Shown in pieces: positions 46,690 to 49,810 of a stretch of DNA of 64,000 bases. Both the position numbers and the translations under genes were made by a program. The stretch is from the NCBI GenBank assembly GCA_009377445.1, contig WHUA01000001.1, forward strand, positions 582,725 to 646,724. The letters are read 5' to 3'. The DNA comes from Alphaproteobacteria bacterium (GTDB lineage Bacteria; Pseudomonadota; Alphaproteobacteria; UBA8366). The notes beneath the pieces are model-generated. The model ran no database searches and was not told the DNA's origin. It saw only the letters and a program-made list of their open reading frames with translations. Position 1 is the stretch's first letter, and every line of letters starts with the position of its first letter.

Positions 46690-47313
46690 ATGCTGAGGAT
46701 TCTGGGGCGCAAGACGTCGTCCAACGTCATGGAAGTATTGTGGGTCTGCGGCGAGCTGAAGCTCGAATTCGAGCGCGTCGACATCGGCGGCTCGTTCGGG
46801 GGCAACGACAAGCCCGAATATCTCGCCAAGAATCCGAACGGCCTGGTGCCGACCATCGAGGACGACGGCTTCGTTCTTTGGGAATCCAACGCCATCTGCC
46901 GCTATCTCGCCGCCAAGCACGCGCCGGGCTCGACCATCTGGCCCGACGACCTGAAGACCCGCGCCGAGGCCGACAAGTGGATGGACTGGCAGCTCAGCGT
47001 CGTCGGCGGAATGATCACGCCGATCTTCTGGGGCCTCGTGCGGACCGAGCCCGCGAAGCGCGACATGAAGGCCATCGAAGCGGCGATCCAGCGCGGCTAC
47101 AAGGTCTGGGGCATGCTGGACAAGCATCTCGCGGGACGGAAGTTCGTCGCCGGCGAGCACTTCACGCTGGGCGACATCCCGGTTGGCGTCCATGCCTTCC
47201 GCTGGTTCAATCTGGTCAAGGAGCGGCCGTCGATGCCGAACTTCGAAGCGTGGTACGACAGGCTCTGCCAGCGGCCGGCCTACAAAGAGCATTGCATGAA
47301 CCCGCTGACCTAG
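46690..47313 (+). CDS. Glutathione S-transferase
   Basis: ORF 46615..47313 with the start at ATG 46690 (RBS GGAGG): MLRILGRKTSSNVMEVLWVCGELKLEFERVDIGG...NPNGLVPTIEDDGFVLWESNAICRYL. The G of its TAG stop comes from MITE copy 3. Confidence 0.9.
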   Translation: MLRILGRKTSSNVMEVLWVCGELKLEFERVDIGGSFGGNDKPEYLAKNPNGLVPTIEDDGFVLWESNAICRYLAAKHAPGSTIWPDDLKTRAEADKWMDWQLSVVGGMITPIFWGLVRTEPAKRDMKAIEAAIQRGYKVWGMLDKHLAGRKFVAGEHFTLGDIPVGVHAFRWFNLVKERPSMPNFEAWYDRLCQRPAYKEHCMNPLT

Positions 47314-47415
47314 AGCAACCTGCGTCCTATCGGACGCAGATAAGTTGCTCTAACCTTTTAAGATAGATCAATTTATCTGCAATCAGGTGATTCCACCTGA
47401 TTGCAGATTGATCTA
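47311..47415 (+). mobile_element. MITE-like two-hairpin element (copy 3)
   Basis: TA-GAGCAACCTGCGTCCTATCGGACGCAGATAAGTTGCTCTAACCTTTTAAGATA-GATCAATTTATCTGCAATCAGGTGATTCCACCTGATTGCAGATTGATC-TA. The body is 101 bp and the right arm of hairpin B lacks 4 nt. Confidence 0.9.
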
Positions 47416-47440
47416 GGCGGCCGGCTGCGAGGGAAAGACG

Positions 47441-47761
47441 ATGAACGGACCGAGAAGGGTGCACGACATGGGTGGCTTGGATGCGGACACGGTCGATCGC
47501 GGCGAGCACAAGCACGAGCCGTGGGAGAAGCGGGTGGACGCCATCCGCATGCTCTGCGCCAAGCACGACCTGCTGCGGACGGACGAGATGCGCCGCAACA
47601 TCGAGGACCTCGGCCCGGGCGTGTATGACAAGATGAGCTATTACGAGCGCTGGTGCGCCGCGATCACCAACGTGCTGCTGCAGAAGAACGTCATCACCGT
47701 CGACGAGCTCGGCCGCAAGATGGCCGAGGTCGAACGACGCTGGGCGGAGGCGCGCAAATAG
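47441..47761 (+). CDS. Nitrile hydratase beta-subunit N-terminal-domain homolog, paralog 1 (stand-alone)
   Basis: 106 aa: RVHDMGG...EPWEKRVDAIRML...RTDEMRRNIEDLGPGVYDKMSYYERWCAAITNVLLQKNVITVDEL. It aligns by eye to the N-half of classical NHase beta (IHDTGG...DWEK...DEFRHSIERMGPAHYLEGTYYEHWLHVFENLLVEKGV). Confidence 0.8.
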   Translation: MNGPRRVHDMGGLDADTVDRGEHKHEPWEKRVDAIRMLCAKHDLLRTDEMRRNIEDLGPGVYDKMSYYERWCAAITNVLLQKNVITVDELGRKMAEVERRWAEARK

Positions 47762-47874
47762 CCGCCGGGCGTTGATGACGGGATTCGATGCATGGTATGG
47801 TCCCTCACGATCTGAATTTCGGGCAAAAATGCCCATGTCGATCAGTGAGTTGAGGTATTCGAAGGAATTGGCGG

Positions 47875-48198
47875 ATGACTGCGTCGAGACGCGTGCATGA
47901 CATGGGCGGGCTGGCGGCCGGGCCGGTCGACCGCGACGAGCCCCCACATGCGGCCTGGGAAATGCGGATCGACGCGATCCGGGCGCTGGTCGCCAAGCGC
48001 AAGCTGCTCCGCACCGACGAGATCCGCCGCAACGCCGAGGATCTCGGTCCCGGCGTGTACGACAAGCTGAGCTATCACGAGCGCCGGTGCGCCGCCATCA
48101 CCAACGCGCTGCTGCAGAAGAACGTGTTTACCGTCGATGAGCTTGGCCGCAAGATGGCGGAAGTCGAGCGGCGGTGGAGCAAGGAGCAAAATCGGTGA
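47875..48198 (+). CDS. Nitrile hydratase beta-subunit N-terminal-domain homolog, paralog 2 (stand-alone)
   Basis: 107 aa. It is identical to paralog 1 at 77 of 106 positions by hand alignment. Its stop overlaps the GTG start of the next gene (GTGA at 48195-48198). Confidence 0.8.
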   Translation: MTASRRVHDMGGLAAGPVDRDEPPHAAWEMRIDAIRALVAKRKLLRTDEIRRNAEDLGPGVYDKLSYHERRCAAITNALLQKNVFTVDELGRKMAEVERRWSKEQNR

Positions 48199-48494
48199 CG
48201 GCGCGTTTCAACATTGGCGATATCGTGCGCATCCGCCGCGCGTTCCCGCCCGGCCATGTGCGCACGCCCTATTTCGCGCGCGGCAAGTCGGGCGTGGTGG
48301 ACGCGATCGCGGGCGAGTACCGCAACCCGGAAGAGCTCGCCTACGGGCGCTACGACGGCCCGGCGTTGCCGCTGTACCGCGTCCGCTTCAAGCAGGCCGA
48401 CCTATGGCCCGGCTATGACGGCCCCGCCAAGGACACGGCCATCGTCGACATCTACGAGAATTGGCTCGAACCCGACAAGGAAGGGCAGCAATGA
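48195..48494 (+). CDS. Nitrile hydratase beta-subunit C-terminal (SH3-like) domain homolog (stand-alone)
   Basis: ORF 48174..48494 with the start taken at GTG 48195: ARFNIGDIVRIRRAFPPGHVRTPYFARGKSGVVDAIAG...LYRVRFKQADLWPGYDGPAKDTAIVDIYENWLEP. It parallels the C-half of NHase beta (RFAVGDKVRV...GHTRMPRYTRGKVGTV...VYTVSF...ELWG...VDLWDDYLEP). Confidence 0.8.
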   Translation: MTARFNIGDIVRIRRAFPPGHVRTPYFARGKSGVVDAIAGEYRNPEELAYGRYDGPALPLYRVRFKQADLWPGYDGPAKDTAIVDIYENWLEPDKEGQQ

Positions 48495-49189
48495 CCGGTC
48501 CCGACAAGCATGGCCATGATCATCACGATCACGGGCACGATCATGGGCACGATCATGGGAACAGCCACGATCACGACCACGCCCGGACCTTTCAGCCGGA
48601 TATCGAGGATGCCCCCTTCGGCCAATACCAGGTGATGGCGCAGGCGCTCGGCGAAGTGCTGATCGACAAGGGCGTGATCACGCCGGACGAGATGCGCGAG
48701 CAGCTCGAATGGCTCGACGCGCGGTCCCCGTCCGACGGCGCACGGCTGGTCGCCCGCGCCTGGACCGACCCCAATTTCAAGGCGCTGCTGCTCGAAGACG
48801 TGAACGCGGCGGCCGAATCGGTTGGCGCGACTGCCGGCGACATACCGATCCGCGCGATTGAGAATACGCCGGCCGTGCATAACGTCGTCGTCTGCACCTT
48901 GTGCTCCTGTTATCCGCGCGGGCTGCTCGGCCTGCCGCCGGACTGGTACAAGTCGCGCGAATACCGCAGCCGCACGGTGCGCGAGCCGCGCGCTATTCTC
49001 GCCGAATTCGGCACGGTCATCGCCGACGATGTCGAGGTGCGCGTGCACGACAGCACCGCGGACCTGCGCTATCTCGTCCTGCCGATGCGGCCGGCCGGGA
49101 CCGAGGGGATGGCCGCCGCGGCGCTGGAAGAGCTGGTCACGCGCGACTGCATGATCGGCGTCAGCCTGCCGCGCACGCCGCGTCCGTAG
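48491..49189 (+). CDS. Nitrile hydratase alpha-subunit family protein (SCNase gamma-like) with His/Asp-rich N-terminus
   Basis: ORF 48461..49189 with the start at ATG 48491 (ATGA overlap). The metal-binding claw VVVCTLCSCYP is at 48893-48910 for C-T-L-C-S-C. LPPDWYKSREYRSR, VHDSTADLRYLVLPMRPAGTEG and VTRDCMIGVS are also present. The N-terminus is HGHDHHDHGHDHGHDHGNSHDHDH. Confidence 0.92.
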   Translation: MTGPDKHGHDHHDHGHDHGHDHGNSHDHDHARTFQPDIEDAPFGQYQVMAQALGEVLIDKGVITPDEMREQLEWLDARSPSDGARLVARAWTDPNFKALLLEDVNAAAESVGATAGDIPIRAIENTPAVHNVVVCTLCSCYPRGLLGLPPDWYKSREYRSRTVREPRAILAEFGTVIADDVEVRVHDSTADLRYLVLPMRPAGTEGMAAAALEELVTRDCMIGVSLPRTPRP

Positions 49190-49216
49190 AGGCTCGGGGC
49201 GCGGTTGGAAAGATCG

Positions 49217-49810
49217 ATGTCACCGGGCCGGCTCTGCTCGCTCCTGATCGCGATCGTGCTCGCGGGCTGCTATCTGCCGAGCGATTTCACCGCCGACCTC
49301 CGGATCACGCCGGACGGCAATTACAATTTTCAGTACACCGGGCAGCTCACCTATCTGCCGCTGCGGGAGAAGCTCGCCCAGGGCGGCCTGTCGCAATCGG
49401 AAGTCGCCGAACAGGTGAAAGCGGTCACCGACGATCTCGCGCGCGACAGGGGGTTCGAGGAAATCAGCTATGTCGACAGCGCAACGTTCCGCGTTCGCTA
49501 CAAGCGCGTCGGCAACATCCTGAGCGAGAAGAGCTACACCTTCATCCGCATCAATTCCCGGCTCCTGTCGATGGAGCGGCGCGCGGACGGCACGGTCGAC
49601 ATCTACGGCGACAAGCCGAATACGGCGGACGCCCAGCGGCTCGCGACGTCCGGTCTCGTCATGCGCGGCCAGCTTCGCATTCAGACCGAAGCGAAGGTAT
49701 TACAACAGAACGCGACGGAAATGGTGGAAGGCGCCGCGCCCGTCTATGTCTGGCGGATCGACGGCGTCGAGAAGCCGTCGCCGCGGCTCATCCTTTCCAC
49801 GCGCCCTTAG
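49217..49810 (+). CDS. Hypothetical lipoprotein
   Basis: ORF 49205..49810 with ATG at 49217. The lipobox is LLIAIVLAGC. No family is recognised. It lies immediately downstream of the NHase-like genes. Confidence 0.6.
   Translation: MSPGRLCSLLIAIVLAGCYLPSDFTADLRITPDGNYNFQYTGQLTYLPLREKLAQGGLSQSEVAEQVKAVTDDLARDRGFEEISYVDSATFRVRYKRVGNILSEKSYTFIRINSRLLSMERRADGTVDIYGDKPNTADAQRLATSGLVMRGQLRIQTEAKVLQQNATEMVEGAAPVYVWRIDGVEKPSPRLILSTRP

Follow-up and report, generated by a model that had tools for sequence, protein, structure and literature searches.

The window analyzed here is a stretch of 64,000 nucleotides from an alphaproteobacterial contig (WHUA01000001.1), and at positions 47441-48198 it carries a tandem pair of genes for the N-terminal domain of a nitrile hydratase (NHase) beta subunit (beta-N), followed directly by genes for the C-terminal domain of beta (beta-C) and for the alpha subunit. 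As judged from its sequence, the locus encodes an activator-less cobalt-type NHase with a split beta subunit, in the order beta-N, beta-C, alpha. We propose that the downstream beta-N copy, paralog 2, is a neofunctionalized beta-N chain that contributes either to a second form of the enzyme or to a mixed complex with the upstream copy, paralog 1, and we put the probability of this reading at roughly 45%. A sequence-only reading of the same DNA had cast paralog 1 as an analogue of the small chaperones that deliver matured alpha to cobalt NHases, and had given the presence of two different beta-N chains in the enzyme as its alternative. Between these two, the alternative with two beta-N chains is the more likely. 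The genes that make up the locus are the following.

47441-47761, + strand: beta-N paralog 1, 106 aa; PF21006 (NHase_beta_N) E=8.8e-19; motifs RRVHDMGG, DEMRR and YYERW
47762-47874, + strand: spacer between the paralogs, 113 nt, GC 0.53
47875-48198, + strand: beta-N paralog 2, 107 aa; PF21006 E=8.3e-14; motif YHERR
48195-48494, + strand: beta-C gene, 99 aa, GTG start; PF02211 (NHase_beta_C) E=8.4e-22
48491-49189, + strand: alpha subunit gene, 232 aa; PF02979 E=1.9e-77; Co-type VCTLCSC metal site

The two beta-N genes were correctly recognized as stand-alone genes in tandem, with exact open reading frame coordinates, and both match PF21006 above its gathering threshold of 21.5 bits (68.1 bits for paralog 1 and 52.1 bits for paralog 2), each over profile positions 3-101 of 115. 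An earlier hand count of 77 identities between them agrees with BLASTP, which finds 77 identical residues in 103 (75%, E=3e-56). Neither paralog reaches TIGR03888, the model for full-length NHase beta, with 60 and 45 bits where 152.2 are needed. Of the 226 positions in that model, the paralogs cover only 2-99 and the beta-C gene covers 136-225, and it is this complementary coverage by separate genes that indicates a split beta subunit. The alpha protein passes the NHase alpha model TIGR01323 (253.8 bits against a cut-off of 249.85) and lies below the thiocyanate hydrolase gamma model TIGR03887 (207.1 bits against 291.45); its best match in the PDB is the alpha subunit of the P. putida Co-type NHase (3qxe_A, E=1.9e-58). 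The VCTLCSC site is found in the window alpha and in every alpha of the family that we examined. Separate beta-N and beta-C genes thus lie directly upstream of a Co-type alpha gene and are joined to it through 4-nt overlaps, one between the paralog 2 stop and the GTG start of beta-C (GTGA, 48195-48198) and one between the beta-C stop and the ATG start of alpha (ATGA, 48491-48494).

The phylogeny of the beta-N proteins distinguishes the two copies clearly. Downstream copies are monophyletic on a long stem, and upstream copies fall among the single-copy orthologues. Pairwise ratios of non-synonymous to synonymous substitution (dN/dS) are 0.04-0.19 for the upstream copies and 0.20-0.40 for the downstream copies. 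Both copies are under purifying selection, and at non-synonymous sites paralog 2 evolves at roughly double the rate of paralog 1. The copies have not undergone recent gene conversion, since the synonymous divergence (dS) between paralogs of one genome, at 0.5-1.3, is no lower than that between orthologues. Paralog 1, in which all of the canonical residues are kept, appears to be the conservative copy of ancestral type, and paralog 2 the derived one.

The substitutions that set paralog 2 apart occur at positions where the family otherwise hardly varies. Among 179 family proteins, the post-Tyr motif reads YY(E/Q/H)RW in 165 and YHERR in exactly 11, and these 11 are the paralog 2 clade. In a column-by-column comparison, H23P, I54T (A in the window), Y68H and W71R are replaced in 11 of 11 paralog-2-type proteins, at sites whose residues are near-invariant in the remainder of the family (163-167 of 168). 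Further shifts in paralog 2 are E26A, M37A, M50I/L and V78A. Paralog 1 aligns without gaps to the beta subunit of the P. putida NHase at an offset of +1, which places R51 at beta-Arg52, Y67 at beta-Tyr68, Y68 at beta-Tyr69 and W71 at beta-Trp72. As a review of NHases states, beta-Arg52 and Arg157 form salt bridges to the oxidized cysteines of alpha, and beta-Tyr68 and Trp72 are residues of the substrate pocket whose mutation inverts regioselectivity (PMC7193024). By this alignment, W71R exchanges the pocket residue beta-Trp72 for Arg, and Y68H exchanges beta-Tyr69, which adjoins the catalytic Tyr68, for His. In every lineage, paralog 2 keeps the RRVHDMGG arm, Arg52, Tyr68 and the 4-nt coupling to beta-C.

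The partner subunits have not followed these changes. We found no clade-specific substitutions in alpha or beta-C of the duplicated clade, and co-adaptation of either subunit was looked for there and not found. Both should therefore still fit a canonical beta-N, and both are presumably still constrained by a canonical partner. Within paralog 2 itself, the fixation of new residues at invariant sites, with later purifying selection, indicates a new constraint and not decay.

A search of protein sequences returned 1553 matches to stand-alone beta-N proteins, and a scan of species-representative genomes returned 80 loci, all of which we re-annotated. Their hosts are almost all metagenome-assembled genomes of Rhodospirillales-, Kiloniellaceae- and Geminicoccaceae-like bacteria, together with a few isolates such as Pelagibius. 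The sequence-only reading had suggested surveying orthologous clusters for one or two N-domain genes, and these loci give the answer: 78 of the 80 have the order beta-N, beta-C, alpha with one beta-N, and two beta-N genes are found only in L018 and L019. Metagenome contigs supplied additional two-copy lineages, comprising the window's own species (L001, L005-L007, L009), a group matching L018 (L012-L017), L098, and L100 with L102. The duplication is a mark of one small alphaproteobacterial subclade with at least five lineages.

The origin of the pair can be approached through L002, a syntenic single-copy contig with polA, a glutathione S-transferase (GST) gene, beta-N, beta-C, alpha, a gene for a 201-aa protein, a VTT-domain gene and PEPCK. 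The sole beta-N of L002 is 85% identical to paralog 1, and in the GST, beta-C and alpha trees the window, L005, L018 and L019 form one clade to which L002 is sister. A single tandem duplication, later than the divergence from the L002 lineage, would be the simplest history. Wherever the duplication is seen, the two copies co-occur in the same order, and each paralog-2-type gene with readable upstream DNA sits behind a paralog-1-type gene. Horizontal acquisition of paralog 2 as a foreign beta-N is unlikely, the YHERR type being present in no single-copy cluster among the 179 proteins and 80 genomes. In most lineages the two beta-N genes are 91-127 nt apart. The earlier statement that coupling to beta-C and alpha is limited to the second copy is correct for the window but does not extend to L100 and L102, in which the beta-N genes themselves overlap by ATGA and all four genes are coupled.

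Two features of the spacer are listed here.

47771-47803, + strand: promoter-like block in the spacer, kept across five lineages
47821-47834, + strand: small hairpin GGGCA-AAAA-TGCCC in the spacer; probably not meaningful

The spacer is indeed AT-richer than its flanks, as had been noted, the two genes having GC contents of 0.64 and 0.67. Its only well-conserved stretch across five diverged lineages is the 33-nt promoter-like block, which consists of a -35 element TTGATG (47772-47777), an 18-nt gap and a -10 element TATGGT (47796-47801) preceded by TGn. The block scores just under the threshold of the consensus scan, and it is absent from L100 and L102, where both beta-N genes overlap. Comparable TTGnCn-N17-CATACT elements lie between GST and beta-N in single-copy relatives, and the duplicated segment may therefore have carried a promoter with it, which we offer as a lead and not as a demonstrated event. 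If the block is a real promoter, it would allow transcription of paralog 2, beta-C and alpha independently of paralog 1. The hairpin described by the sequence-only reading is present, but the significance given to it does not survive: shuffled versions of the spacer fold just as well (z=0.09), it contains no terminator-like site and no Rfam family above chance, and across five lineages it shows no conserved RNA structure or covariation, the pairing of the hairpin not being kept. These results rule out the hairpin as a terminator or regulatory RNA. Nor was the spacer copied from the sequence that separates GST from paralog 1, the two having no alignable similarity.

The alpha subunit of the window carries a 24-residue His/Asp-rich tract at its N terminus, HGHDHHDHGHDHGHDHGNSHDHDH. 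Within alpha residues 1-30 (48491-48580), this (HDH)n tract is followed by the conserved motif (H)P-x-QPD(I/L)E. The tract, with 2-13 His across the family, and the motif are found in almost every alpha of the split-beta family (alpha genes L002-L097) and also in L105, a Streptomyces locus. The tract may be a built-in cobalt-capture tail that takes the place of an activator. L105 lies on a plasmid of Streptomyces sp. NBC_01176 (NZ_CP108601.1, 1736-5508) and consists of a beta-N gene of 111 aa, beta-C and alpha, followed by an aquaporin gene and a gene for a HoxN/NixA-type Ni/Co transporter. In its record, beta-C is annotated only as 'SH3-like domain-containing protein', and the split beta halves are not recognized as beta subunits.

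We suggest the following division of labor between the copies. Paralog 1, which keeps the ancestral sequence, most likely still acts as the ordinary beta-N chain, and this role would include whatever help with alpha maturation a single-copy beta-N gives. Paralog 2 retains the residues that would be needed to sit on alpha, namely the HDMGG arm, beta-Arg52 and beta-Tyr68, and we infer that it assembles with the same beta-C and alpha. This would add a second form of the active site with a more polar or cationic character and probably an altered substrate specificity, present either in an isoenzyme of its own or in complexes that also contain paralog 1. The copy altered at pocket and other invariant residues is paralog 2, and the earlier alternative, an enzyme with two different beta-N chains, is a better fit than the chaperone role proposed for paralog 1; the joint assembly itself stands as a prediction.

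Several considerations weigh against a variant enzyme subunit. The pocket role of the changed residues is carried over by alignment from distant Co-type NHases, and Arg as residue 72 might obstruct the pocket or render it inactive and not retune it, which would suit a non-catalytic, chaperone-like role. For the retention of both copies in every lineage seen, an obligate two-chain system is at least as good an explanation as optional isoenzymes. The promoter-like block in the spacer, for its part, hints at separate expression of the two copies. Neofunctionalization, a split between structural and chaperone roles, and a heteromer cannot be separated by sequence alone, and we weigh them here by the evidence on each side.

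A chaperone role has a direct precedent in AnhD, the beta-N chain of the three-subunit ScNHase of S. canus, which is reported both as part of the enzyme and as a swapping chaperone: a beta-N2-alpha complex, AnhD2A, helps cobalt insertion and cysteine oxidation and swaps mature alpha into the apo-enzyme, which is activated without an activator gene (PMC7329996). Duplication could have split such a dual role into a structural and a chaperone copy, with paralog 2 the likelier chaperone, and we regard this as possible but on the unlikely side. The accessory proteins annotated in other clusters do align to the beta N-domain, which bears out the earlier statement that activators of the P14K/NhlE class are relatives of beta. 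Besides the two beta-N genes, neither a profile hidden Markov model nor a search with real accessory proteins found a beta-N-like or accessory-like open reading frame in the 64-kb window, and an activator hidden elsewhere within it was sought and not found. The swapping complexes have a 2:1 stoichiometry, with which two beta-N genes per alpha would agree, both copies are kept in all lineages, and the promoter-like block could permit them to be dosed separately. However, neither paralog reaches the accessory-protein model TIGR03889, whose cut-off is 46 bits: the match of paralog 1 is confined to residues 65-88 and yields 15.1 bits (E=0.017), and for paralog 2 there is none with E values allowed up to 10. 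In real accessory proteins YYxxW is kept and the beta-specific HDMGG is absent, and paralog 2 is the reverse; both paralogs keep RRVHDMGG and lie upstream, whereas the accessory proteins of L103 and L104 are without this motif and lie downstream. A single beta-N is enough for 78 of 80 related clusters, and the changes in paralog 2 are new residues fixed at invariant sites, not relaxed drift. In addition, the His-rich alpha tract is family-wide, and ToyJ alpha alone is reported to self-mature, according to a citation in PMC7329996, so that a dedicated chaperone is not obviously needed.

Nothing singles out paralog 1 for such a role. It is an unchanged orthologue of the structural subunit that clusters with the sole beta-N of the 78 single-copy loci and has the lower dN/dS of the two copies; together with its failure to reach TIGR03889, these properties of a conservative copy leave the original assignment of the chaperone to paralog 1 without support. 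A broader version of the same idea would make the locus a snapshot of how beta-derived activators originate, in which a bifunctional beta-N was duplicated and one copy became a dedicated alpha-maturation chaperone without a normal pocket while the other stayed catalytic; we consider this somewhat less probable again. A similarly low probability attaches to an obligate hetero-oligomer, in which (alpha, beta-C)2 would carry one paralog 1 and one paralog 2 across the two-fold axis in place of a homomeric beta-N pair, giving either a pair of active sites that differ from each other or one catalytic site alongside a structural or regulatory one. That the copies are always together and in the same order, that L100 and L102 show coupling throughout the four genes, and that both copies are under purifying selection with alpha and beta-C unchanged all agree with such a heteromer. 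On the other hand, the fixed changes map to positions in the pocket region, not to a demonstrated beta-beta contact, and the spacer of 91-127 nt with its promoter-like block in most lineages is unlike what strict 1:1 production would call for. Simple redundancy, with paralog 2 a faster-drifting spare kept for dosage and without a distinct function, is consistent with its roughly two-fold higher rate at non-synonymous sites, but we hold it to be very improbable: at least five diverged lineages have kept the gene intact, at a dN/dS far under 1, and replacement of the same four positions in all 11 members points to a new constraint and not to decay. A neofunctionalized paralog 2 is the reading that we favor.

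The pair is bordered by genes and by a repeat that are listed here.

46690-47313, + strand: GST gene, 207 aa; Pfam GST_N and GST_C
47314-47417, + strand: repeat of about 104 nt resembling a miniature inverted-repeat transposable element (MITE), between the GST stop and the ribosome-binding site of paralog 1
49205-49810, + strand: gene for a 201-aa protein with a lipoprotein-like signal (LAGC); syntenic in close relatives

Throughout the close relatives (L002, L005, L012-L026, L090, L096), the GST gene is the upstream neighbor and the 201-aa gene the downstream neighbor of the NHase genes, and the order polA, GST, beta-N is seen in L002, L005 and L012-L026. The gap from GST to beta-N is only about 24 nt in L005 and L100, which suggests co-transcription. 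The 201-aa protein has no Pfam or NCBIfam match and is not an activator. A functional link of the GST and 201-aa genes to the substrate of the NHase is possible.

The MITE-like repeat fills most of the 127-nt region between GST and paralog 1. Further copies lie at about 54558-54661 (+), 59082-59185 (+) and 22560-22660 (-), making four near-identical copies in the window. The repeat ends in imperfect terminal inverted repeats, AGAGCAACCTGCG / AGATCAATCTGCA, with TAG on both flanks, and it holds a 15-bp perfect palindrome at 47375-47389 and 47394-47408, ATCTGCAATCAGGTG-attc-CACCTGATTGCAGAT. Its sole Rfam match is weak and sub-threshold (BASRCI27, E=0.3). The sister contig L005 lacks the repeat at the corresponding position and, given how closely related that contig is, the insertion is therefore recent. 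Lying between GST and paralog 1, the repeat may influence how paralog 1 is expressed in this genome.

Split-beta three-subunit NHases are known from only two studied Streptomyces enzymes, their activator-free maturation is still debated, and as late as 2026 a review presents ScNHase as a novel arrangement (PMC13243292). We found no description in the literature of an NHase cluster with two beta-N genes. What the present analysis adds is a large uncharacterized alphaproteobacterial split-beta family with a His-rich tail on alpha and, within it, a four-gene subclade in which the pocket Trp appears to be replaced by Arg in the second beta-N chain. If paralog 2 retunes specificity, nature would have changed an NHase pocket by way of one small subunit, an example of value to the design of biocatalysts. 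Should the structural and chaperone roles have been divided between the copies, the evolution of P14K/NhlE-type activators from beta could be seen at this locus.

Among known systems, the canonical two-gene Co-type NHases (P. putida, 3qxe; P. thermophila, 1ire) provide the closest alpha subunits in the PDB, and their beta-Arg52, Tyr68, Tyr69 and Trp72 align one-to-one with paralog 1; they differ in having a single fused beta and in depending on a downstream accessory protein. Those accessory proteins (NhlE, NhhG, P14K; TIGR03889), for which we compared annotated examples from a Parageobacillus plasmid and a Citrobacter plasmid (L103, L104), resemble the paralogs as small homologues of the beta N-domain with PWE and YYxxW helices, and they act on alpha. 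They differ from the paralogs in lying downstream of the structural genes, in the absence of the HDMGG arm, and in strong divergence, at 17-22% identity.

The overall architecture is shared with the Streptomyces three-subunit Co NHases, ScNHase (AnhD/AnhE/AnhA) of S. canus and the toyocamycin NHase ToyJKL of S. rimosus, which likewise have the order beta-N, beta-C, alpha, the CTLCSC metal motif and no activator gene. The Streptomyces locus L105 resembles the window in its split-beta architecture and in an alpha with a His-rich N-terminus. The AnhD-like beta-N is 42% identical to paralog 1 and carries YYERW. The Streptomyces enzymes have one beta-N gene, whereas the locus described here has two, the second with YHERR, and their hosts are Actinomycetes, in contrast to the uncultured, Rhodospirillaceae-like Alphaproteobacteria of the present family.

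Thiocyanate hydrolase (SCNase; beta, alpha and gamma subunits; PDB 2dd4) is similar in that its beta is split into two chains, and among PDB sequences SCNase beta matches paralog 1 best (E=9.6e-09). It differs in a beta N-terminal extension of about 40 residues that is absent here and in keeping YYGRW, and the window alpha passes the NHase alpha model but fails the SCNase gamma model. Within SCNase beta, Arg90 binds the thiocyanate anion, and in the alignment this residue faces M50 of paralog 1, which corresponds to Phe51 in the beta of Co-type NHases. Within the family, SCNase sets a precedent for an extra Arg in the beta-N pocket region going together with an anionic substrate.

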